In this document: one piece after another, positions 5,241 to 44,280 of the stretch
Layout: the number at the start of each line of letters is the position of its first letter
How positions within the stretch are numbered: position 1 is the first letter of the stretch
Assembly: GCA_035534715.1 (NCBI GenBank)
Contig: DATLRJ010000020.1
Span: 6 to 64,005, forward strand
Direction of reading: 5' to 3'
DNA length: 64,000 bases
DNA from: Acidimicrobiales bacterium
Lineage (GTDB): Bacteria; Actinomycetota; Acidimicrobiia; Acidimicrobiales; Bog-793
The notes under the pieces: generated by a model
Told to the model about the DNA's origin: nothing
Seen by the model: only the letters and a program-made list of their open reading frames with translations
Database searches by the model: none
Position numbers and translations under genes: made by a program

Positions 5241-6824
5241 ATGGCAGTGCGAGAGACGTTCGACGTCGTGGTCGCCGGCGCCGGCCACAACAGCCTGATC
5301 GCCGCCGCGTACCTCGCGCGGGCGGGCCTGCGCTGCCTCGTGCTCGACGCGCGCCCGGTCGTCGGCGGCGACACCGCGACCGAGGAGCTCACGCTCCCAG
5401 GCTTCCGCCACGACAGCTGTTCGACCGCGCACAACCTCATCCAGTCCTCGCCGACGCTCCGCGACGACGAGCTCGGGCTCTTCGAGCTCGGACTCGAGTA
5501 CCTCTACCCGGACCCCGTCGCGCACGTGCCGTTCCCGGACGGCGCGTCGATCACGCAGTGGCGCGACGTCGACCGGACGTGCGACGAGCTCGCGCGCTTC
5601 TCGGTCCGCGACGCCGCCGCCTACCGGCGGCTGATCGACGAGTACGCCGCGATCGCCCCGGTCGTCGGCGCGTACCGCTACACGCCGATCGGGTGGGGCC
5701 CGTCGCTCACCGACGCCCTGCTCGCGCGAGACGGCGGGGCGCGTTGGGTGCGGCGCGCGGCCGGCAGCGCCTGGGAGGCCATCGCCGCGACGTTCGAGGA
5801 GGAGCACGTGCGCGCCTTCATGGCGTGGATGGCGTTCATGACGATCCAGCCGCTCGAGCAGCCGGGGACGGGCCTCAACGCGTACTCGCTCGTCTTCGGT
5901 CGCCAGCGGCACAGCTGGGTTGTGCCGCGCGGCGGCTCCGGGGCGCTCCCCGCCGCGCTCGCCCGCGTGATCGAGGCGGGCGGCGGGCAGCTCCGCACCG
6001 GCGAGCGGGTCACCGGGCTGTGCGTCGAGCACGGGCGGTGCGTCGGGGTGGAGACCGAGCGGGGTGACCGCTACGACGCGACGCGCGCCGTGCTCTCGAC
6101 GATCCACGTGAAGCACCTCCTCGAGATGGCGCCCGTGGCCTCCTGGGACGACGGCTTCCGGTACGCGGTCGACTCGTGGCAGCCCGGGATCGCGATGTTC
6201 GTCACGCACTACGCGCTGCGCGGGCCGCTCGAGTACCCGGGCGACGCCGGTCCGGTGCGCCCACTCGCGTCCGGCACGCCCGTGTCCTCACTTCGCATGC
6301 GCGACCTCGAGGTCGACGTGCGGCGCGGCCGGGTCGCGCTCGACGACCCGCCGCTGCTCGTGCTCTGCCCGACCGCGCTCGACCCGAGCCGGGCGCCGGC
6401 GGGGGCGCACACGCTGAAGGTCGTCGGCTTCCATCCCTACGACGTCGAGGGCGGGGCCCGGCGGTGGGACGAGATCGCGGACGAGGTCTCCGACGCGCAC
6501 CTCGCCCACCTCCGACGGTACGCGCCGGGCCTCACCGACGAGGCGATCCTCGCGAGGAGCGTCCACAGCCCGCTCGACCTCGAGCGGGCGAACGCGCACA
6601 ACTGGCACGGGTCGTGCCACGGCGGCGACTCGGGCCCCGCGCAGTCCGGGGCGCTCCGGCCGGCGGCGGGCTGGGCGACGCACCGGATGCCGATCGACGG
6701 CCTCTACCAGACGGGCTCGACGACCCATCCCGGAGGCTCGGTGTCCGGCGCGCCGGGGCGGAACGCCGCGATGGTCATGCTCGCGGACTTCGGGCTCGAC
6801 CTCGGCGAGGTCGTCGCGCGCTGA
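5241..6824 (+). CDS. FAD-dependent oxidoreductase, phytoene-desaturase (CrtI) family
   Basis: FDVVVAGAGHNSLIAAAYLARAGLRCLVLDARPVVGG dinucleotide-binding motif. Start taken at ATG 5241 inside the longer ORF. Confidence 0.85.
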   Translation: MAVRETFDVVVAGAGHNSLIAAAYLARAGLRCLVLDARPVVGGDTATEELTLPGFRHDSCSTAHNLIQSSPTLRDDELGLFELGLEYLYPDPVAHVPFPDGASITQWRDVDRTCDELARFSVRDAAAYRRLIDEYAAIAPVVGAYRYTPIGWGPSLTDALLARDGGARWVRRAAGSAWEAIAATFEEEHVRAFMAWMAFMTIQPLEQPGTGLNAYSLVFGRQRHSWVVPRGGSGALPAALARVIEAGGGQLRTGERVTGLCVEHGRCVGVETERGDRYDATRAVLSTIHVKHLLEMAPVASWDDGFRYAVDSWQPGIAMFVTHYALRGPLEYPGDAGPVRPLASGTPVSSLRMRDLEVDVRRGRVALDDPPLLVLCPTALDPSRAPAGAHTLKVVGFHPYDVEGGARRWDEIADEVSDAHLAHLRRYAPGLTDEAILARSVHSPLDLERANAHNWHGSCHGGDSGPAQSGALRPAAGWATHRMPIDGLYQTGSTTHPGGSVSGAPGRNAAMVMLADFGLDLGEVVAR

Positions 6825-7725
6825 CGCGCGCGGCCGGGCGCGGGACCGAGAAGCGCCCGTCGGGATCCGGACGCGCGAGGGCGCGACCGGAGGGCCGGCG
6901 CCCGGGGCGCTCGGACGTGGGAAGCCCGTCGAGCCACGCGAGCGCGTGCTCGTAGCCGATCTCGAGCAGCCGGCGGGTGTGGCGAAGGTCGGCCATCGGG
7001 GCGCGCACCCGCGGCGCGGGGATCACGTGGAGCTGCGCGGACAGGGCCGTGCGCGTCCCGTCGAGACCGTCGCGCGCGGACGCGACCTGGCCCGGCATCG
7101 TCGGGAGCACGAAGAGGCGGGTCGCACCGAGCGCGAGGGCCTGGCGCACCGGCACGTCCGCGGCGAGGCTCCCGTCGACGAGCACCGTTCCACCGTGCGC
7201 GACGGGCGGGAGGAGCCGGGGCACCGCGCTGCTCGCGAGCAGCGCGGTCACGACGTCGCCGGACTCGAGCACGACCGCCCGGCGCGAGCCGCGCTCGGTC
7301 GCGACGACCGCGAGCGGTATCGGCGCCTCCTCGAGACGCTCGAAGCCCACGAAGGACTCGAGCACCGATCGCAGGCCGGACGAGTCGAAGAGGTGACCGC
7401 CGCGCCGGACGAGCCCGCGCAACGCCGTCGGGGCGTCGAAGCGCAGGATGTCGCTCCGCCGGAGCGAGCGCCAGAATCGGGCGATCTCGGCGATGCCGTC
7501 GAGATCCGCGCGACTCGACAGGAAGGCGCCGTTGATCGCACCGACGGACGTCCCGACGATCAGCCCCGGGCGGATGTCGCGCTCGACGAGCGCGTAGGCC
7601 ATGCCGACCTGCAGCGCGCCGAGGTTCCCCCCGCCGCCGAGGACGAACGCCGGGCGGTCCGCGTCGCCCGTCGGGCCGCCGGGCTCGAGCGCTCCCGCCG
7701 GCCCCGCGCGCTCAGACGTCCTCAT
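6775..7725 (-). CDS. Patatin-like phospholipase
   Basis: GGGGNLGA oxyanion motif, GTSVGA (GxSxG) and a VDGS Asp dyad. Start taken at the internal ATG (MRTSERAG). Confidence 0.85.
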   Translation of the reverse strand: MRTSERAGPAGALEPGGPTGDADRPAFVLGGGGNLGALQVGMAYALVERDIRPGLIVGTSVGAINGAFLSSRADLDGIAEIARFWRSLRRSDILRFDAPTALRGLVRRGGHLFDSSGLRSVLESFVGFERLEEAPIPLAVVATERGSRRAVVLESGDVVTALLASSAVPRLLPPVAHGGTVLVDGSLAADVPVRQALALGATRLFVLPTMPGQVASARDGLDGTRTALSAQLHVIPAPRVRAPMADLRHTRRLLEIGYEHALAWLDGLPTSERPGRRPSGRALARPDPDGRFSVPRPAARVSARRPRRGRARSPRA

Positions 7726-34254: not shown

Positions 34255-34845
34255 TCAGGACGCACCCGTCGGGGTCTTCGGCACCGACGTCGTGTACGCG
34301 GTCGCGCTGATCGACGCGGTGTAGTTCGTGAAGCTCGAGGCGTTCAGGTTCCCGTTCCCCGAAAGGGAGACCGACTGGATCGTGAGGAGGCGGCTCATCT
34401 TGTACAGGTCGGAGATGAAGGCGAGGAGCTGGTCGTGCGGGCCCGACACGGCGAGCGCGACCGGGATCGTCGAGTAGCCGAGACCGCTCGGCTGCACGGA
34501 GTCGTCGGTCACGCTCTGCAGGCTCACGCCGTCGGCCACCGAGAGCCGGTACACCTGCACGACGAGGTCGGGCGCGTCCGGAGTCGACGGAATCGCCGTC
34601 GCGAAGTGCTTCAGGAACGGGGCGGCGGCCTGGACCTGCTTCGCCTCGGCGCGCAGCTGCACGAGGCGGAGGTCGAGTCGCGTCTCGGTCTGCTGCTCGG
34701 TGATCTGCTGCTGGTGGATGCTCGCGAGCTTCGACCCCTCCGGCGTCATCCACGCGAACCACCACGCGAGCGCGAGCACTGCGACGCCGAGCACCGAGAC
34801 GAGCACGGCGGGTCGACGGGCGAGGCTGCGGCTCGGGGCGCTCAT
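34255..34845 (-). CDS. pilO: PilO-like pilus biogenesis protein
   Basis: Single N-terminal TM, coiled-coil (QQQITEQQTETRLDLRLVQLRAEAKQ), then a small alpha/beta domain. ATGA overlap with pilMN. Confidence 0.65.
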   Translation of the reverse strand: MSAPSRSLARRPAVLVSVLGVAVLALAWWFAWMTPEGSKLASIHQQQITEQQTETRLDLRLVQLRAEAKQVQAAAPFLKHFATAIPSTPDAPDLVVQVYRLSVADGVSLQSVTDDSVQPSGLGYSTIPVALAVSGPHDQLLAFISDLYKMSRLLTIQSVSLSGNGNLNASSFTNYTASISATAYTTSVPKTPTGAS

Positions 34846-36551
34846 CGCTTCGGCACCTCGAACTCGGCGAGGCGATCGGTGTGGATCGCCCCGGTGACCG
34901 CGAGCTGTGCCGTGAAGTCCACGCCGTGCCCGCTGCTCGACACCCCGGAGTACTGCACGATCTCGAATCTCGCCGATGCCACCATCGCGTCGAACCACTC
35001 CTTGAACGAGGGATACTGCGGCCCGGAGAACGACAGGCTCACCGTGCCGACGGTGTCGGTGGGCGACGGGAGCGCCGAGGACGGGCCGGCCACCTGGCCG
35101 GTCGACGCGCTGGTCGCCGCCGTCGGCGCGACCGCCGTCGACCCGGAGAACCCGCTCGCGCTCACCGACGCGGGGGTGTACTTCGCGAGCGCCGCGAACA
35201 CCGCCGGCCAGTTCACCTCGTGGCTCACGATCGGCATGCCGATGCGCGAGTCGGCGAAGATCGCGTTGTCCTGCTGCTGGACCCGGTCGTACGCGGGGAG
35301 CTGCTTCTGGAGGTGCGCGATCTCTCCCTTGATGCTGCCGACGCCGTGCTCCGCGTTGCGCACCTGGAGGAAGCGCAGCGCCCCTCCGGCTGCGAGCGCG
35401 ACCACCGCGATGACCGCCGCGCTCTGGATCGTGCGGGTCGTGCGTGCGCGGCGACGCTCGACGAGGACCTCGGGCGGGAGCAGGTCGAGCGCCTTGCGAC
35501 CGGCGGATTCCGTCATCGCGGCGCCCGCGGCGACCGCGCCGACCGTGTCGGCGTGGATCCGGTCGAAGCTCAGGCGGCCCGTGTCGACGTGCTCGAGCCA
35601 GCTCGCAGTCGTCACGGGGACGCGGACCTGGTACTCGAGGCGCTCGACGAGCCCGGCGAGGCGCGAGCCGCCGCCGGTCACGACGACGCGCGAGACCTCC
35701 GGCAGGCCGGGGAGCGTCGCGAAGTAGTCGATCGAGCTCCGGATCTCGCCGAGCAGCGGCGCCGATCCGTCGCGCGCCGCCGCGACCGCCTCGGCCGGGA
35801 GGCGCCCCGCGTCGGTGGGCGACCAGCCGAGGCGGATCTTGATCTGCTCGGCGTCCGCAGCGGGGATGTCGAGCGCCGCGGAGATCGCTCGCGTGACGGC
35901 GTTGCCGCCGCCGGCGATCGTCCGTACGAAGTGCGGCTCGCCGAGCTCGTGGATCACGATGGTCGTGAGCTCGGCGCCGATGGAGACGATCGCCTCGACA
36001 CCCGGCTCCTCGCTCGCGAGCGAGCGCACGAGCGCGGAGGACGCGAGGTCGACGCCCTTCACGACGAGCCCGGACTCCGCGAGCACGTCGACCAGCGGCT
36101 CGACGAGCGCCCGGTGCGCCGCCGCGAGGTGCACGCGGACGAGCTCGGTGCCGTCCGGCGCGGTGACGGTCCCGAGCGTCCGCGCCGACAGAAGCGTCTC
36201 CTCCTCGGGGAAGGGGATGATGTCGAGCGCCTGCAGCCGGACCGCCGCGTCGAGGTCCGCGTCGGGAACGCGCGGCATGACGATCTCGCGGCTGATCGCG
36301 CGGAGCCCGGCGACCGCGAGCCAGACTTCGGGCGGTGCGCCGAACTTGCTGCGCTCGAGATGTGCGTTCTTCAGGCAGGCGGCGACCGTGCGCTTCACGG
36401 CCGACCGGTCGGCTACCACGCCGTCGGCCACCGCGCCCTTCGGGAGCGCGGCCTCGCCGAAGGCATGGACCTTCGCGCGAGAGCCGCCGCTGTCGATCTC
36501 GACAATACGCACGGAGGTGGCGGCCACCTCGATGCCGATTCGCCGCGTCAC
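34842..36551 (-). CDS. pilM: PilM-PilN fusion protein
   Basis: Actin-like PilM region (IGIEVAATSVRIVEI, VVTGGGSRLAGL). Then LLPPEVLVERRRAR plus a TM plus a PilN-like coiled-coil. AAGGAGGG before GTG 36551. Confidence 0.85.
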   Translation of the reverse strand: MTRRIGIEVAATSVRIVEIDSGGSRAKVHAFGEAALPKGAVADGVVADRSAVKRTVAACLKNAHLERSKFGAPPEVWLAVAGLRAISREIVMPRVPDADLDAAVRLQALDIIPFPEEETLLSARTLGTVTAPDGTELVRVHLAAAHRALVEPLVDVLAESGLVVKGVDLASSALVRSLASEEPGVEAIVSIGAELTTIVIHELGEPHFVRTIAGGGNAVTRAISAALDIPAADAEQIKIRLGWSPTDAGRLPAEAVAAARDGSAPLLGEIRSSIDYFATLPGLPEVSRVVVTGGGSRLAGLVERLEYQVRVPVTTASWLEHVDTGRLSFDRIHADTVGAVAAGAAMTESAGRKALDLLPPEVLVERRRARTTRTIQSAAVIAVVALAAGGALRFLQVRNAEHGVGSIKGEIAHLQKQLPAYDRVQQQDNAIFADSRIGMPIVSHEVNWPAVFAALAKYTPASVSASGFSGSTAVAPTAATSASTGQVAGPSSALPSPTDTVGTVSLSFSGPQYPSFKEWFDAMVASARFEIVQYSGVSSSGHGVDFTAQLAVTGAIHTDRLAEFEVPKR

Positions 36552-36604: not shown

Positions 36605-37852
36605 TTACGACGGCTGGAGGAGCTTTACGTAGTTGAACATCGGCAGGTACAAGCTGACGACGATCGCTCCGATGCAGATGCCCATGAAGACGATGAGCGC
36701 GGGCTCGAGGAGCGAGGTCAGGCTGCCCACGGTCGCGTCGATCTCGTTGTCGTAGAACTGCGAGACCTTGTCGAGCATGTCGCTCACCGCACCCGACTCC
36801 TCGCCGGTCTCGACCATCTGCAGGACCATCGGCGGGATGATCGGGTGGTCCGCGAGCGTCGAGGCGAGCGACCGACCGTCGCGCACCCCCGCGATCGCTC
36901 CTCGTGCCGCGTTGCTCACGATGCGGTTGCTCACGTTGTCCGCAGCCATGTCGAGTGACTCGATGATCCCGACCCCGGACGCGAGCAGCGTCCCGAGCGT
37001 CGAGAGCATCCGCGACAGACCGACCTTCAACATCAGCGGACCGAACACGGGCGCGCGCAGCCGGAGGCGGTCCCACGTGAGCCGCCCGCGCTCGGTCGAC
37101 ACCCACCAGCGGACGGCGAACACCGCTCCGACGACGACCGCGACGACGGCGAGCGCCCAGATGCTCGCGACGATGTTCGACGCGCCGATCACGATGCGAG
37201 TCGGCAACGGCAGCGTCCCGTGCAGGCTGCTGTAGAGGTGCTTGAACGTCGGGACGACGAAGATCATCATCGCCGTGATCACGAGGACGACGACGAAGAC
37301 GACGACGACGGGGTAGGTGAACGCGGACCGCACCTTCGAGCGGAGCTCGACCCGCTTCTCGATCGAGTTGGCCAGCTTCAGCAGCACGACGTCGAGCTGA
37401 CCTCCGGCCTCGCCCGCACGGACCATCGACACGTAGAGCCGGTCGAAGATCTTCGGGTGCTTCGCGAGCGCGGCGGAGAACGACGTCCCGTGCTCGACCT
37501 CGCTTCGCACCGCGACGAGCGCGGTGCGAAGCGGCTTCGACTCGACCTGCGCCGAGAGGACGGCGATCGCACGCACGAGCGTGAGGCCCGACGCGACCAT
37601 GGTCGCGAGCTGGCGGCTCATGACCGAGATCTCCTTCAGGTTCACGCGATCGGTCAGGCCGGGGATGCGGATGTCGCGGTGGAGGTCGAGCGCTGAGGTC
37701 GCCTTGATCTCGATCGGCAGGTAGCCCATCTCGCGCAGCCGCGACGCGACGAGGGACTTGTTGTCCGCGTCGATCCTGCCCTTGACCACCTTCCCCGCGT
37801 TGTCGCGGACCCGGTACTCGTACGTCGTGACCGTCATCGTGGCCTCACTCAA
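36605..37852 (-). CDS. pilC: Type IV pilus platform protein (GspF/PilC family)
   Basis: Two T2SSF repeats (GLTLVRAIAVL, GVGIIESLDMAA). Alternative ATG start at 37837. Confidence 0.9.
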   Translation of the reverse strand: MSEATMTVTTYEYRVRDNAGKVVKGRIDADNKSLVASRLREMGYLPIEIKATSALDLHRDIRIPGLTDRVNLKEISVMSRQLATMVASGLTLVRAIAVLSAQVESKPLRTALVAVRSEVEHGTSFSAALAKHPKIFDRLYVSMVRAGEAGGQLDVVLLKLANSIEKRVELRSKVRSAFTYPVVVVFVVVLVITAMMIFVVPTFKHLYSSLHGTLPLPTRIVIGASNIVASIWALAVVAVVVGAVFAVRWWVSTERGRLTWDRLRLRAPVFGPLMLKVGLSRMLSTLGTLLASGVGIIESLDMAADNVSNRIVSNAARGAIAGVRDGRSLASTLADHPIIPPMVLQMVETGEESGAVSDMLDKVSQFYDNEIDATVGSLTSLLEPALIVFMGICIGAIVVSLYLPMFNYVKLLQPS

Positions 37853-39630
37853 CCCTTCAGGTAGTCGAGCAGCTGCTTCGGGTCGTGGGCGCGGTCGAAG
37901 GCCACGGTCTCGCTGATCTTGCGGTCACGGACGGCCTCCGCCAACGCCTGGTCCATCGTCTGCATGCCGCTCGAGCCGCCGGTCTGCATCAGCGAGTAGA
38001 TCTGGTGGGTCTTCGACGAGCGAATGAGGTTGCGGATCGCGGGCGTGCAGACCATCACCTCGGCGACGGGCACGCGTCCGACCCCGCCCTCGGCGATGAC
38101 GAGCTGCTGGGTGACGACCGCCTCGAGCGCGCCGGCGAGCTGGACGCGCACCTGGTCCTGCTGGTTGGTCGGGAAGACGTCGACGATCCGGTCGATCGTC
38201 TGCGGCGCGTCCTGGGTGTGCAGGGTCGCGAACACGAGGTGGCCGGTCTCGGCCGCCGTGAGCGCGGTCGAGATCGTCTCGAGATCCCTCATCTCGCCGA
38301 CGAGGATGACGTCGGGGTCCTGGCGCAGCACGTGCCGCAGGCACTCGGCGAACGACGACGTGTCCTGCCCGACCTCGCGCTGGTTCACGATCGAGCGCTT
38401 GTGCTCGTGGTGGAACTCGATCGGGTCCTCGACGGTCATGATGTGGAGCGGCTTCGTGGCGTTGATGCGGTCGACGACCGCGGCGAGCGTCGTGGACTTG
38501 CCCGAGCCCGTCGGACCGGTGAGGAGCACGAGACCGCGCCGGAGGTCGGCGAACGACGAGACCGCCCGCGGCAGGTCGAGCGACTCGAGCGTCGGCACGC
38601 CGGGTGGGATCGTGCGGAAGACCGCACCGACCGAACCGCGCTGCTGGAACACCGACAGACGGAACCGGCCCACGTCGGGGATCTCGTAGGAGGTATCGAG
38701 CTCCTTCGAGGCCTCGTAGCGCTCCCGCACCGACTGGGGCAGGATCTGGAAGATCATGTCCCGCAGCACGAGCGGCTCGATGGGCTCGAGATCCTCGATC
38801 GGCCGGATCGAGCCGTCGATGCGCACCGCCGGCGCGAAGCGGGCCGCGAGGTGCAGGTCGGAGGCGCCGTGCTCGACGGCGAAGACGAGCAGGTCGTTCA
38901 CGTCGCTCGCGAACGGCCGGCCGAAGGGACCCGGGCGGCGGTCCGACGGCGCGGGACCGGACGGAGCCGAGCGATCGGGCACGGGAGCCGGCCCGAGGTC
39001 GAGGACGACCCGCGTCGAGGGCGAGTCCTTCTCGGCACCGCGGCCGTTCGCCGCCGAACCGTCCTCGAGCGACCCGCCGTAGGGCGCCGAGGCTGCAGGC
39101 GGCTGCACCTCGCGAGGCGCAGCGCGCGTCAGTAGCTTCACGGAATCCTCCTCGTCGCTCATGCGCGCGCTCGTCGGGGATCCACCGTGCGCGATGAGCC
39201 TGTCGATGACGACCGGGTCCGCGAGAACACACCCGGCGATCCCGCAGTCGAGCGCCGACGCGATCGACTGCAGGTGGTCCGCGGCAAGTGGCTCGGAGCA
39301 CGCGAGCACGAGATAGCCGTCCTCGAGCCGCTGTCCGATCGCCCGGTGGTAGCGCGCGACCGCGAGCGGGACCGCGGCCGCGGCCGCGAGCGTCGGAGGG
39401 TCGCGGTCGAGGTCCACGGCGCGAAGACCGGAGATCGCGGACAGGCACTCGAGCGCCTCGGCGCTGTCGACGATCCCGTCGTGCGCGAGCAGGATCGCGA
39501 CGGGAGTGCCGCTCGCGGCGCTGCGCGCGAGCGCGGCGCGCGCCGCGTCCGCATCGAGCCGGCCGCTCGAGACGAGGGCCTCGGCGAGGCGCCGGGACCA
39601 TTCCGAGACCGGAGTCGTTGCAATGCTCAT
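37849..39630 (-). CDS. pilT: PilT-family retraction ATPase with N-terminal T2SSE_N/MshEN-like domain
   Basis: C-terminal 360 aa: Walker A GPTGSGKST, DPDVILVGEMRD, and PAIRNLIRSSKTHQIYSLMQTG (AIRNLIRE-type motif). N-terminal 150 aa resemble the GspE/PilB N-domain. A Pro/Ala/Ser linker joins the two. Confidence 0.9.
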   Translation of the reverse strand: MSIATTPVSEWSRRLAEALVSSGRLDADAARAALARSAASGTPVAILLAHDGIVDSAEALECLSAISGLRAVDLDRDPPTLAAAAAVPLAVARYHRAIGQRLEDGYLVLACSEPLAADHLQSIASALDCGIAGCVLADPVVIDRLIAHGGSPTSARMSDEEDSVKLLTRAAPREVQPPAASAPYGGSLEDGSAANGRGAEKDSPSTRVVLDLGPAPVPDRSAPSGPAPSDRRPGPFGRPFASDVNDLLVFAVEHGASDLHLAARFAPAVRIDGSIRPIEDLEPIEPLVLRDMIFQILPQSVRERYEASKELDTSYEIPDVGRFRLSVFQQRGSVGAVFRTIPPGVPTLESLDLPRAVSSFADLRRGLVLLTGPTGSGKSTTLAAVVDRINATKPLHIMTVEDPIEFHHEHKRSIVNQREVGQDTSSFAECLRHVLRQDPDVILVGEMRDLETISTALTAAETGHLVFATLHTQDAPQTIDRIVDVFPTNQQDQVRVQLAGALEAVVTQQLVIAEGGVGRVPVAEVMVCTPAIRNLIRSSKTHQIYSLMQTGGSSGMQTMDQALAEAVRDRKISETVAFDRAHDPKQLLDYLKG

Positions 39631-39673: not shown

Positions 39674-42127
39674 TCATACGATCACCCTCAGGATCTCCTC
39701 GAGGCTCGTGAGCCCCATCGCGGCCTTGCGAAGGCCGTCGCGGTGAAGTGTCGTCATCCCTTCGAATATCGCGAGGCGCTTGATGTCCTCGGTCGACGCG
39801 CGCGCGAGGATCGCCCGCTCGACCTCCTCGGTGACGGGCATCACCTCCTGGACCGCGAGCCGGCCCCGATAGCCGGTTCCGCTGCACGCCTGGCAACCGA
39901 CCGCTCGGCGGAACTGGAGCTCGCCGGACTCGGGCGCGTCGGCCTCGACCCAGCGCGACGCGATGAGCTCCTGCTGCGTCGGCTCGTACGGCTCGGCACA
40001 GATGTCGCACAGCAGCCGCGCGAGCCGCTGCGCGAGCACGCAGTCGAGCGCCGAGCAGACGAGGAAGGGCTCGACGCCCATCTCGATGAGCCGCAGCGGC
40101 GTGCTCGCCGCGTCGTTCGTGTGCAGGCACGTGAGCACGAGGTGGCCGGTGAGCGCGGCCTCGATCGCGATCGTCGCGGTCTCGCGGTCGCGGATCTCGC
40201 CGACGAGCACGATGTCGGGGTCCGAACGCAGGATCGACCGGAGCGCGCTCGCGAAGCTGAGGCCGGCGCGCGGATTGACCTGCACCTGGTTCACGCCTCG
40301 CAGCTGGTACTCGACGGGGTCCTCGACCGTGATCAGGTTCCGCTCGGGCAAGTTGAGCTTGTTCAGCGTCGCGTACAGCGTCGTCGACTTCCCCGACCCC
40401 GTCGGACCGGTCACGAGGATCGTCCCGGACGGCTTCTTGTAGGACTCCTCGTAACGGGAGAGGACCTCGGGCAGGAAGCCGAGGCGCGCGAGGTCGAGCG
40501 GCGCGGTCGACTTGTCGAGCACCCGGAGGACGACCTTCTCGCCGTGCACGGTCGGGAGCGTCGCGACGCGCAGGTCGATCTCGCGCGCGCTCGCGGTGAG
40601 CGACAGGCGTCCGTCCTGGGGCACCCGGTGCTCGGCGATGTCGAGGTCGGCCATGATCTTGAGACGGGAGATCACGCCGCCCTGGATCGACTTCGGGGCG
40701 CTCGTCACGTGGTGGAGCACGCCGTCGATCCGGAAGCGCACCTGCAGGTCGTCCGAGCTCGGCTCGATGTGGACGTCCGAGGCCCGCTCGTTGAGCGCCT
40801 GGCGCAGGATGAGGTTCACGAACTTCACGATCGGCGCGTCCTCGACGACCGCGTGGAGGTCGTTGAGCTCGCCGAACTGCGTCGCCTCGGAGGCGGCCGC
40901 CGAGAGTGCGGCGTTGCGCGCCGCGACGTTCGCCTCCTCGTTGTGCCGGTAGGTCCGCGACAGGTAGTCCTCGACCTGCTGCGCCGTGCAGATGACCGTG
41001 ACGACCTCTCGGCCGAGCAGCGTCCGGACGTCGTCGAGCGCGAACACGTCGGACGGGTTCACCATCGCGATGATCGGACGGTCGCCGCGGAAGCCGATCG
41101 CGATGATCCGGTACCGGCGCGCGAGCGACTCGGGGAGCAGCTGCGCGGCGACCGGGTCGATCGCCCAGTTGTTCAGGTCGACGAACTCGATGCCCTCGAC
41201 GAGCGCGACCGCTCGTTGCAGGTCGGCCTCGCTCACGATGCCGAGCTCCGCGATGATCTCGCGAAGGGAACGGCCCGAGGACTGCTGATGGCGCAGCGCG
41301 ACCTCGAGGTCCGCCGCGCTGACCGCACCGGCGTCGAGAAGGACCTGTTCGAGCGCGGGTTTCGGCCCGCTGAGGTCCACGGGCGGGACGAGGTCGTCCG
41401 GCTCGTCGAACAGCGCGCCGAGCGCGACGGCGCTCGGGTCGGCTTCGCCGGGCTCGTCCGTCGCCACGACGTCGAGGTCGCCACTGTCGGCCGAGGCGCC
41501 GGTCGTCGCCGCCTCGACATAGGGCGCGTCCTGCACCGCGCCCTCGGCGGGCTCGTCCGAGGTCACCTCGCCGTCGGCATCGCCCGGCGCGGCCTCGCCG
41601 GCGCCGGCGCCGGGAACAGCCGCGCTCCCCGCCGTCCAGTCGTCGAGGCCGTCCGCTCCCGTCGGCACGAGCTCGGCGGGTCCCGCTGCCGCAGCGGGAC
41701 GCCTCGCCCCGGTCGTGGTCGGTGACGCCGTGCCGCGCTTCGGGCTGTTCGCGTAGACGCGCTCGATCCAGCGGTCGATCTGGATGCCGCTCGCGACCAC
41801 GATGTGCACGTCCCGCCCTGCGGCGAGGTAGATGTCGTCGAGCAGGAAGAGGTCCTCGGGGGTCGCGACCGCGACGACGGGCAGCCCGTAGCGCCAGCCG
41901 ACGGCGACCGCGCGGTCGCGGCGCGACCGGTCCTCCGGGAGCACGTCCGCCGACGTCGGGTCGAGCTCGAACATCTCGAGGTCGACGAAGTCGAAGCCGG
42001 CCTGGATCGCGGCCTGCCGCGCACGGGCGATGTCCTCGGCGAGGAGCGTCGCGTCGGCGTCGTCGGTGGCGAAGGTCACTGCCGGGAACTCCGCCTCGAC
42101 GACGTCCTCGTCCGCCATGGACACCAT
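39674..42127 (-). CDS. pilB: Type IV pilus extension ATPase (GspE/PilB family) with two N-terminal T2SSE_N domains
   Basis: Walker A GPTGSGKST. Tetracysteine CDIC...CQACSGTGYRGR. Two copies of the N-domain pattern. Start ATG 42127 supported by an upstream GGAG and stop/start overlap with a small ORF. Confidence 0.9.
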   Translation of the reverse strand: MVSMADEDVVEAEFPAVTFATDDADATLLAEDIARARQAAIQAGFDFVDLEMFELDPTSADVLPEDRSRRDRAVAVGWRYGLPVVAVATPEDLFLLDDIYLAAGRDVHIVVASGIQIDRWIERVYANSPKRGTASPTTTGARRPAAAAGPAELVPTGADGLDDWTAGSAAVPGAGAGEAAPGDADGEVTSDEPAEGAVQDAPYVEAATTGASADSGDLDVVATDEPGEADPSAVALGALFDEPDDLVPPVDLSGPKPALEQVLLDAGAVSAADLEVALRHQQSSGRSLREIIAELGIVSEADLQRAVALVEGIEFVDLNNWAIDPVAAQLLPESLARRYRIIAIGFRGDRPIIAMVNPSDVFALDDVRTLLGREVVTVICTAQQVEDYLSRTYRHNEEANVAARNAALSAAASEATQFGELNDLHAVVEDAPIVKFVNLILRQALNERASDVHIEPSSDDLQVRFRIDGVLHHVTSAPKSIQGGVISRLKIMADLDIAEHRVPQDGRLSLTASAREIDLRVATLPTVHGEKVVLRVLDKSTAPLDLARLGFLPEVLSRYEESYKKPSGTILVTGPTGSGKSTTLYATLNKLNLPERNLITVEDPVEYQLRGVNQVQVNPRAGLSFASALRSILRSDPDIVLVGEIRDRETATIAIEAALTGHLVLTCLHTNDAASTPLRLIEMGVEPFLVCSALDCVLAQRLARLLCDICAEPYEPTQQELIASRWVEADAPESGELQFRRAVGCQACSGTGYRGRLAVQEVMPVTEEVERAILARASTEDIKRLAIFEGMTTLHRDGLRKAAMGLTSLEEILRVIV

Positions 42128-42282
42128 CAACGCTCCGCCACGCGGCACGGCCCGCCCACGGGCAACGCGATCGACCGGCGGGCGCGTGTCGAGACGAGGG
42201 CCGCGGCACTCCGGGCCGGCACCGGCGCCGCGTAGTAGCGTCGCCGCGGCACGCTCGGCGTCTGCTCGACAACAAGGGACAC
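42127..42282 (-). CDS. Candidate 51-codon upstream ORF translationally coupled to pilB
   Basis: AGGAGG (42294-42289) 6 nt before GTG 42282. Its TGA shares one base with the pilB ATG (TGATG). G/C-rich third positions. Basic Arg/Pro/Ala-rich product with no recognisable family. Confidence 0.3.
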   Translation of the reverse strand: MSLVVEQTPSVPRRRYYAAPVPARSAAALVSTRARRSIALPVGGPCRVAER

Positions 42283-43182: not shown

Positions 43183-44280
43183 TCAGCCGAGGACCGACTG
43201 GGCCATCCCCTGGCGCTGCAGCATGATGCGCAGATCGTGCGAGTTGGGCGCCGAGGCGATCGCTGCCTCGACGTCGATGGCCCCCTCGCGGAGCAGACCG
43301 ACGAGGGACTGCGCGAACGTCTGCATCCCGTAGTAGTCGCCCTCGGCCACGATCTCGGCGATGTTGCTCGTGTGCACGGGCTCGACGATGCACTGCTGGA
43401 TCCGGCCGTTCACGACCATGATCTCGAGCGCGGGCACGCGCCCGGAACCGTCCGCGGTCGTGACGAGGCGCTGGCAGATCGTGCCCCGCAGCGCGCCCGC
43501 GAGCGAGAGCCGGGCCTGGCGCTGCTGGCTCGGGGGGAAGAAGTCGATGATCCGGTTCACGGTCTCGACCGAGTCGCCCGTGTGCAGCGTCGAGAGCACG
43601 AGGTGCCCCGTCTCGGCTGCCGTGAGCGCGGTCTCGACCGTCTCGGGGTCGCGCATCTCGCCGACGAGGATGACGTCGGGGTCCTCGCGCAACGCCGAGC
43701 GGAGCGCGACGTTGAAGTTGTCGGTGTCGAATCCGACCTCGCGCTGGCTGATCGACGCGAGGTTGTCCCGGTGCAGCACCTCGATCGGGTCCTCGATCGT
43801 CACGATGTGGCACTCGCGCGTCTTGTTCAGGTGGTCGATCATCGCGGCGAGCGTCGTCGTCTTGCCGCACCCGGTCGGTCCGGTCACGAGCACGATCCCG
43901 CGCGGCTCCTCCGCGAGCCGGCGCACGGCGTCCGGCAGGCCGAGCTCGGCGAGCGTCTGGGTTCCGGGCCGGACGTGACGGAAGACCATCGACACGGTGC
44001 CGCGCTGGCGGAACGCGTTGACACGGAAGCGGCCGAGCTGGGAGACCGAGTACGCGAAGTCGGCCTCCGACGACACCTCGAACCGCTGCCACACGCGCTC
44101 GTGCATGATCACCTTCGCGAGCGCCTCGAGGTCGCCGCCGTCGATGACCCGCTGGTCCGTCATCCGGCGCAGGACGCCGTTCACGCGCATGCGCGGTGGC
44201 GAGCCGGCCTTGACGTGAAGGTCGGAGCCCTCCGCCTTCACGAGCTTGCCCAGGACCGCGTCCAGATCGTGCTGATCCAT
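43183..44280 (-). CDS. pilU: PilT/PilU-family ATPase (PilU-like, lacks AIRNLIRE)
   Basis: Walker A GPTGCGKTT and DPDVILVGEMRD. The AIRNLIRE position reads GRIQQCIVE. C-terminal NSHDLRIML resembles PilU. GAGGAGGG SD. Confidence 0.85.
   Translation of the reverse strand: MDQHDLDAVLGKLVKAEGSDLHVKAGSPPRMRVNGVLRRMTDQRVIDGGDLEALAKVIMHERVWQRFEVSSEADFAYSVSQLGRFRVNAFRQRGTVSMVFRHVRPGTQTLAELGLPDAVRRLAEEPRGIVLVTGPTGCGKTTTLAAMIDHLNKTRECHIVTIEDPIEVLHRDNLASISQREVGFDTDNFNVALRSALREDPDVILVGEMRDPETVETALTAAETGHLVLSTLHTGDSVETVNRIIDFFPPSQQRQARLSLAGALRGTICQRLVTTADGSGRVPALEIMVVNGRIQQCIVEPVHTSNIAEIVAEGDYYGMQTFAQSLVGLLREGAIDVEAAIASAPNSHDLRIMLQRQGMAQSVLG

Follow-up and report, generated by a model that had tools for sequence, protein, structure and literature searches.

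Position and start codon of the fusion gene

We analysed a 64,000-nucleotide stretch of contig DATLRJ010000020.1 from an uncultured Acidimicrobiales bacterium (assembly GCA_035534715.1; this whole stretch is called the window), in which a pil operon contains a pilT gene whose product has an additional N-terminal domain of the MshEN family. The preliminary description of this DNA had placed the gene at 37849–39630, and an open reading frame was found at exactly these coordinates on the minus strand, with the ATG at 39630, the stop codon at 37849–37851 and a product of 593 amino acids. Its MshEN domain is separated from the PilT ATPase core by a linker rich in Pro, Ser and Ala; the preliminary figure of about 80 residues for this linker was close to the 93 residues (151–243) that we obtained. 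The positions of these parts and of the neighbouring genes are collected in Table 1.

The annotated start codon of the fusion gene is real. Met1, Trp11, Arg14 and many further N-terminal positions are conserved in 119–120 clusters of homologues, with the initial Met kept in 113 of 120, and a Shine–Dalgarno-like AAGGTGG lies 4 nt 5′ of the ATG. The G+C content at third codon positions (GC3) of the fusion frame is 0.89 in the N-domain, 0.86 in the linker and 0.96 in the core, which is the coding pattern expected at 71% G+C. Moreover, an independently assembled contig of a metagenome-assembled genome (MAG), L019, is 98% identical and has the same 610-codon open frame. The preliminary description had named an internal start codon, giving a PilT of normal length, as the finding that would speak against a fusion, and such an annotation artefact could be imagined at the in-frame GTG of codon 164 (39139–39141), which has a Shine–Dalgarno-like GAGGAGG 5 nt on its 5′ side. 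This explanation is hardly credible and was rejected, because the N-terminal 150 residues are conserved, confidently folded in the structure model and coding by GC3, because the first Met is conserved, and because the frame is identical in an independent MAG. Since the GAGGAGG site sits in the variable linker, where it encodes DEED, the codon-164 GTG is treated merely as a possible source of a second, shorter isoform, which is conceivable.

Table 1. Parts of the fusion gene and genes around it, in window coordinates
Feature	Coordinates	Strand	Basis
pilT fusion gene	37849..39630	minus	593 codons and stop; TIGR01420 465.6 bits; Pfam PF05157 and PF00437
MshEN N-terminal subdomain, four-helix bundle, residues 10–67	39430..39603	minus	AlphaFold2; alignable with the bundle that binds c-di-GMP in MshE and PilF
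Degenerate motif I, residues 14–37, RLAEALVSSGRLDADAARAALARS	39520..39591	minus	9 of 11 relaxed-motif positions agree
Degenerate motif II, residues 43–66, PVAILLAHDGIVDSAEALECLSAI	39433..39504	minus	9 of 11 relaxed-motif positions agree
MshEN C-terminal alpha/beta subdomain, residues 68–150	39181..39429	minus	Pfam MshEN at residues 68–148; AlphaFold2 strands
Disordered Pro/Ser/Ala-rich linker, residues 151–243	38902..39180	minus	pLDDT, composition, GC3
PilT ATPase core, residues 244–593	37852..38901	minus	TIGR01420; PilT structures; AlphaFold2
Walker A GPTGSGKST, residues 372–380	38491..38517	minus	Invariant in 39 homologues
AIRNLIR motif (PilT hallmark), residues 531–537	38020..38040	minus	Read from translation
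pilB, 824 aa, 43-nt gap upstream of pilT	39674..42148	minus	TIGR02538 629.8 bits (just below 675.65); two Pfam MshEN stretches
pilC (T2SSF)	36605..37852	minus	PF00482, two repeats; listed TTG start overlaps pilT stop
pilM with C-terminal membrane extension (PilM-PilN-like, GspL-like topology)	34842..36551	minus	PF11104 PilM_2 at residues 6–346 of 569
Plain-length PilT/PilU-family paralogue, 365 aa, without AIRNLIR	43183..44280	minus	TIGR01420 435 bits; Pfam T2SSE only

The PilT core

By all features examined in its sequence, the core can be assigned to the PilT family, as the preliminary description had proposed on the strength of an AIRNLIR motif, which is present. The TIGR01420 model (PilT/PilU family) scored 465.6 bits, against a cut-off of 319.1 bits, over residues 244–585 and model positions 2–342 of 343. 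A phmmer comparison aligned residues 242–590 with Geobacter PilT (6ojx) at an E-value of 9e-110, and solved PilT structures match the core at 1e-106 to 1e-110. The catalytic motifs are all present (the Walker A sequence, the Walker B sequence DVILVGEMRD at 440–449 and the His box residues H464/H471) and are invariant in 39 homologues, as are positions N534, L535 and R537 of AIRNLIR. In the full-length AlphaFold2 (AF2) model the predicted local distance difference test (pLDDT) of the core is mostly >87. The PilB model TIGR02538 gave the core only 170.1 bits, below its equivalog cut-off of 675.65, with a good alignment in the P-loop region alone. Canonical PilT proteins (Geobacter metallireducens PilT4 6OJX, P. 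aeruginosa 3JVU/3JVV and Aquifex aeolicus 2EWV) align end to end with residues 242–592 and have Walker A and B, Asp and His boxes and AIRNLIR in common with the fusion core, but they are ∼345–390 residues long and have no N-terminal domain, whereas the fusion protein has 243 extra residues made up of MshEN and the disordered linker.

A second PilT/PilU-family gene, of plain length, is present at 43183–44280. Its Walker A sequence is GPTGCGKTT, it has NGRIQQCIVE in the place of AIRNLIR, and it looks PilU-like from its sequence. It is encoded, like the pil operon, on the minus strand, just past the divergent pilD (42.2–43.1 kb, plus strand). Because this paralogue is without AIRNLIR, the fusion protein is the only ATPase with the PilT hallmark among those found in this 71%-complete MAG. 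The paralogue, 3.5 kb away, also bears on the question of which protein retracts the pilus: the fusion protein might be not, or not only, a retraction motor, and could drive extension as a second motor of that kind, or drive both directions, while the plain 365-residue protein retracts. The title of one paper, on V. cholerae PilT promoting both MSHA pilus extension and retraction (PMC9815625), points in the same direction. We consider this arrangement improbable, because the PilT score of the fusion core (465.6 bits) is far above its PilB score of 170 (cut-off 675), because AIRNLIR is found in the fusion and is lacking in the paralogue, PilU-like as that appears, and because a dedicated PilB is encoded directly upstream. 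On these sequence features the operon-linked gene is predicted to encode the PilT motor of a type IVa pilus machine that has no secretin; the protein bears AIRNLIR, and its catalytic core is intact.

Fold of the N-terminal domain and the linker

The N-terminal region had been described as a T2SSE_N/MshEN-like domain, with hidden Markov model searches and structure prediction proposed as the check; these gave an MshEN fold, and Pfam, a profile of homologues, AF2 and Foldseek agree on it. Pfam MshEN (PF05157, gathering cut-off 23.1) scored 31.0 bits in the whole protein and 33.6 when the region was scanned alone, over residues 68–148. A profile built from 39 homologous N-domains matched solved MshEN/GSPII domains over residues 13–154, with E-values of 2.8e-23 for PilF, 3.5e-11 for Xanthomonas PilB-N, 3.8e-10 for Geobacter PilB and 8.6e-10 for V. 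cholerae MshE (5htl). The AF2 model of residues 1–156 (pLDDT 90, predicted template modelling score 0.82) is a four-helix bundle followed by an alpha/beta subdomain, with the helices at 10–21, 27–40, 44–50 and 56–67 (pLDDT 93–97) and the strands at 97–103, 106–111 and 131–137. All 20 Foldseek matches in the PDB with E ≤ 0.001 are MshEN, GSPII or XpsE-N domains; the top match was 7lkn (Xanthomonas PilB-N) and the closest structural match PilF GSPII-A, with a template modelling (TM) score of 0.72. Thus by score and predicted fold the N-domain is a member of Pfam MshEN. The alpha/beta subdomain (∼68–150) also has a weak resemblance to the GspL-binding N1 domain of EpsE/GspE, where 2bh1 was matched with a TM score to target of 0.61, a probability of 0.80 and an E-value of 0.27, and 4pht was matched as well.

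These likenesses place the protein beside several known motors without making it equal to any of them. MshE-type extension motors have the same two-subdomain fold N-terminal to an ATPase of the PilT/VirB11 class (Foldseek TM 0.57–0.68, probability 1.0; profile E 8.6e-10), but here the ATPase is PilT-type (TIGR02538 170 versus 675) and both 24-residue motifs for binding cyclic di-GMP (c-di-GMP) are degenerate (NF053729 11.6 versus 38). PilB has an N2 domain where the present protein has its long disordered linker. The best structural matches, Thermus PilF GSPII-A (9G1W) and Xanthomonas citri PilB-N bound to PilZ (7LKM/7LKN), likewise have degenerate or absent c-di-GMP motifs; unlike MshEN-PilT they sit on extension motors, and no PilZ partner was identified for MshEN-PilT. 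For the complexes of GspE/EpsE N1 with the cytoplasmic domain of GspL/EpsL (2BH1, 4PHT), the likeness of the alpha/beta subdomain is weak (E 0.27), and a corresponding interaction in the window protein could be proposed by analogy.

Of the 93 linker residues, 15 are Pro, 13 Ser and 13 Ala. Residues 156–238 have pLDDT <50 in the full-length AF2 model, in which both domains are confident. Linkers are 62–116 residues long in the loci of the window's clade versus 18–68 in other clades, and the range of protein lengths (542–707 aa) implies linkers of up to ∼200 residues among the homologues.

Distribution and origin of the fusion

The proteins of the 120 best homologue clusters are 542–707 aa long except for one 411-aa fragment, and all but two have both PF05157 and PF00437; the clusters with names are PilT/PilU from Acidimicrobiales, Acidimicrobiia or Actinomycetota MAGs. 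For prevalence we used 121 genomes drawn evenly from the class, and PilT cores with at least 523 bits against a full-length profile were taken as the operon type. There were 39 such cores, and plain-length paralogues scored 345–470 bits. The full-length profile returns its best-scoring stretch (the core) alone, so it was paired with a separate search for the N-domain. An N-domain match was found directly upstream in the same open frame for 31 of the 39 cores, and two more had the N-domain by coverage of the full-length profile, which brings the fused ones to 33; two were plainly short (G421, G335), and four remained unassigned because of contig breaks or weak N-domains. This answers, for the operon type in the class sample, the question set by the preliminary description of how often PilT cores carry the domain (33/39), and in Acidimicrobiia this gene is normally fused. 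The length of the open frame is a noisy proxy for an N-terminal extension in a phylum of high GC content: the plain PilT of G343 lies in a stop-to-stop frame of 474 codons, the upstream part of which has no coding character.

In a family of the same order (f3; genomes G302, G290, G469, G390, G264 and G251), the sole PilT-family matches score ∼420–437 bits and contain one to three stop codons each, located toward the upstream end, perhaps because the matching was over-extended or because the genes are decaying. In most of those genomes MshEN has no match at all.

A phylum-wide N-domain search was evaluated for the best 150 of 420 matches, and outside the class only verified examples were counted, namely G040 and the three loci L063, L064 and L068, which come from named Actinomycetota or mis-binned MAGs. 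The nearest PilT cores of other phyla (80 loci fetched, from Armatimonadota, Bacillota, Riflebacteria, Poribacteria and Pseudomonadota) had no MshEN domain.

In a maximum-likelihood tree of 73 PilT cores, rooted by other phyla, all 33 fusions fall into one group of 37 rows (support 93/63). The other four rows of the group are no real exceptions: L023 and L034 are cut by contig ends, L038 has the N-domain in another frame, and L051 has a partial N-domain. Plain Actinomycetota PilT is the sister of this group, L016/L063/L064/L068 form the first branch within it, and a long branch (support 100/100) leads to the window's clade. Within Actinomycetota the fusion has a single origin. In L038, an uncultured Acidimicrobiaceae MAG, the locus at 5644–7418 has the N-domain and the PilT core in different frames, through either an assembly error or a fusion pseudogene.

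State of the c-di-GMP motif

The c-di-GMP site of MshEN domains consists of two 24-residue motifs, RLGxx(L/V/I)(L/V/I)xxG(L/V/I)(L/V/I)xxxxLxxxLxxQ, spaced by five residues, in which Arg1 makes a stacking contact with guanine, O6 and N7 are bound by the main-chain amides of Gly3 and of the residue after it, Leu2, Leu17 and Leu21 form two stacking triangles, and Gln24 contacts phosphate and ribose (PMC11731258, PMC5013675). Gly3 is the sole fixed residue of the relaxed motif of Wang et al. 2016 (PMC5013675), [RKPN]hGxxhhxx[GAS]hhxxxxhxxxhxx[QNKRYWST]. In motif I of the window protein (RLAEALVSSGRLDADAARAALARS), Gly3 is replaced by Ala16 and Gln24 by Ser37, and position 11 is Arg; in motif II (PVAILLAHDGIVDSAEALECLSAI), Gly3 is replaced by Ala45 and Gln24 by Ile66. 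Position 17 is Ala in both motifs, which removes two of the six stacking Leu residues; motif I retains Arg1 and Leu2, and Gly10 is retained in both. Neither motif fits the relaxed pattern, each failing at Gly3 and at one further position, and the curated NCBIfam model NF053729 (cut-off 38 bits) gave the window protein 11.6 bits over residues 14–64. There was no match to the relaxed motif, in either half, among 119–120 close homologues, where Gly3 has become V or A in motif I and A or S in motif II. Hence, judged by its residues, the N-domain of the window fails the tested defining feature of the c-di-GMP-binding MshEN subclass. For the helix that it quoted, which is residues 14–37, the preliminary description held that the first half of the motif matches and the second does not, which is roughly right under the strict consensus, but it missed the loss of Gly3 in both copies (A16, A45). 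Its further suggestion, that retraction might be controlled by a nucleotide second messenger, finds no support here, given the loss of Gly3 and Gln24 in both motifs, the NF053729 score of 11.6 versus 38, and the absence of relaxed-motif matches in 119 clusters.

Relatives differ in this respect by degrees. NF053729 gave 11.6 bits for the window protein, 20.1 for L027 of the window's clade, 34–46 for the middle clades and 66–73 for the basal clade. In the 44 clusters of the family around P0121, a basal-clade protein from locus L063, motif II fits the relaxed pattern in 32, and motif I misses it at position 10 alone. The earliest-branching fusions thus keep a near-canonical c-di-GMP motif, and the window's clade has lost the defining residues; a single branch combines the erosion of the motif, the newly gained invariant Trp11 and the expansion of the linker. 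On present sequence data, c-di-GMP-controlled retraction is unsupported for the window copy and plausible in relatives, and for the early-branching sister clade, with its 66–73 bits, c-di-GMP-gated retraction is well supported by sequence.

As the main rival of the reading preferred below, the N-domain might still be a second-messenger receptor, with c-di-GMP or another cyclic di- or oligonucleotide held in a remodelled pocket where the invariant Trp11 and Arg13/Arg14 replace the lost Gly, Leu and Gln contacts, so that retraction would be gated directly. Several observations agree with this: ancestral-type fusions have a strong motif (66–73 bits, and 32 of 44 clusters fitting relaxed motif II), the four-helix bundle is intact (pLDDT >93), part of the consensus survives (Arg1 and Leu2 in motif I, Gly10 in each motif), and at least 22 GGDEF domains are encoded in the genome. 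Non-consensus MshEN domains can bind tightly as well, since deviations from the consensus in PilF GSPII-B (Arg1 to Lys or Leu) can raise affinity (PMC11731258), and motif scoring for this reason leaves c-di-GMP binding possible. Nevertheless, the NF053729 score is 11.6 bits against a cut-off of 38, Gly3 and Gln24 are lost in both motifs, two of the six stacking Leu are Ala, and none of 119 family members fits the relaxed motif; moreover, the best structural match is a PilF GSPII domain for which c-di-GMP binding is not reported, the two PilF domains that are reported to bind it not including GSPII-A (PMC11731258). On balance we think a receptor in the window protein unlikely, though well worth keeping in mind. 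The wider proposal, an Actinomycetota retraction motor under direct control of a nucleotide messenger through MshEN, with c-di-GMP read in the early clade and a rebuilt Trp11/Arg13/14 pocket reading another ligand, or c-di-GMP anew, in the window's clade, seems to us doubtful to a similar degree. If it were true, one and the same messenger, or messengers in competition, would govern extension through PilB-MshEN and retraction through PilT-MshEN within a single machine.

Loss of the binding residues does not appear to be general decay. In the window's clade W11, L19, P79, G99, P114 and L136 are invariant and the N-terminus has an 'EWSRRL' signature; across 39 sequences of 32–53% identity there are 6 invariant and 15 nearly invariant positions, so that the N-domain of this clade is under strong constraint. 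The stepwise erosion of the binding motif along the tree could be taken as a sign that the domain has lost all function and is decaying, as the remnant of an ancestral c-di-GMP sensor. This reading is highly improbable and was rejected, because of those invariant and nearly invariant positions, because frameshifts and stops are absent from 119 clusters, because a new conserved signature (W11-S12-R13/14) was gained, and because at least 33 of the 39 class genomes have retained the domain.

The N-domain as a proposed docking or regulatory handle

The explanation that we prefer, and to which we give a probability of about 0.5, is that the N-domain is a tethered protein-binding handle for docking or regulation rather than a canonical c-di-GMP sensor; control by a partner protein is preferred over control by a messenger for the window copy. 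The homologous PilB domain, or its GspE subdomain, is thought to dock at the cytoplasmic platform. By the proposed mechanism, the N-domain would no longer read c-di-GMP in the canonical way and would serve to bind a protein. Through the flexible linker of ∼90 residues, it would tether the PilT hexamer at the cytoplasmic platform (PilM-N and/or PilC), or control access to it. The extension and retraction motors could then replace each other at a single machine with no loss by diffusion, or could compete for one docking site.

Three lines of evidence suggest such a handle. Some motors are known to carry MshEN-fold domains that do not bind c-di-GMP; PilF GSPII-A is one example and Xanthomonas PilB-N, which binds PilZ, another. 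Moreover, the alpha/beta subdomain weakly resembles the GspL-binding N1 of GspE (2bh1, probability 0.80), and PilM of the window has a GspL-like topology. By this analogy PilM is a candidate docking partner.

Other points weigh against a handle. The docking partner is a guess, and Foldseek relates the domain to EpsE N1 only weakly (E 0.27). A receptor on pilus motors would make sense in this genome because, with its ≥22 GGDEF domains, it is rich in c-di-GMP signalling. The motif score is no exclusion, as the deviations in PilF GSPII-B can raise affinity (PMC11731258), and a new pocket for nucleotides could be built from the invariant Trp11 and Arg13/14, which lie beside the former site. Finally, Gly3 is missing from the neighbouring PilB too, whose NF053729 score is nevertheless just sufficient.

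The motif of that PilB (ALEQVLL... and SLREII...) is without Gly3, and NF053729 scored 38.4 bits against the cut-off of 38. Binding of c-di-GMP by the window PilB is hence also uncertain, because Gly3 is missing though the score is just above the cut-off. The PilB proteins of the window's clade (including L019–L038) are 800–900 aa long, with two MshEN units and a long linker, and those of other Actinomycetota clades ∼560–580 aa.

How bacteria choose between pilus extension and retraction is still unsettled. The c-di-GMP inputs known so far target the extension motor or work indirectly, through adaptors of the PilZ/FimX type. Because the motif runs from intact to eroded while the linker lengthens along the same series, the present lineage is a natural experiment, and the series allows a direct biochemical test both of messenger-gated retraction and of the role that MshEN has after c-di-GMP binding stops.

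Relation to published work

In the literature that we searched, MshEN is placed on PilB/GspE-type motors only. Roelofs 2015 stated that PilT and PilU have no MshEN domain, and that PilT is thus unlikely to be regulated by c-di-GMP (PMC4624772), with which the preliminary description, in taking PilT to be normally without an N-domain, agrees; Wang 2016 mentions PilT nowhere (PMC5013675). No description of the MshEN-PilT architecture was found in the literature searched, subscription journals being outside its coverage. At the level of Pfam, MshEN-PilT (PF05157 and PF00437) is indistinguishable from PilB, and therefore it may have gone unremarked and is a likely annotation trap. New here are the graded series from intact to eroded motif on a tree with a single origin, the coincident expansion of the linker, the prevalence figure for the class, and a REC-PilT fusion that is described below.

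Operon context and other N-terminal extensions of PilT

The order pilB-pilT-pilC is constant in all Actinomycetota loci examined, fused or plain, and pilM then follows pilC in the loci of the window's clade. The TTG start of pilC and the TGA stop of pilT overlap as TTGA (37849–37852), an arrangement suggestive of translational coupling; pilC could alternatively start at an ATG further downstream.

Two other N-terminal extensions of PilT were seen. In another family of the same phylum, locus L017 (G233:C3, minus strand, 585-codon frame) has a REC-PilT fusion, in which PF00072 scored 47.1 bits versus 30.2 and the linker is rich in Pro, Ala and Gln and ∼110 residues long. It likewise has an N-terminal signalling domain, a low-complexity linker and an intact PilT core, and it differs in its input domain (REC versus MshEN). 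In Riflebacteria/Ozemobacteraceae MAGs (L072, L074, L081, L083, L093 and L094), PilT cores carry a Pro-rich, low-complexity N-terminal extension of 110–155 residues without any Pfam match; it opens with the conserved peptide MS[DE]N[DE]xFFxK[LF]FG and has the appearance of a tethered short linear motif.

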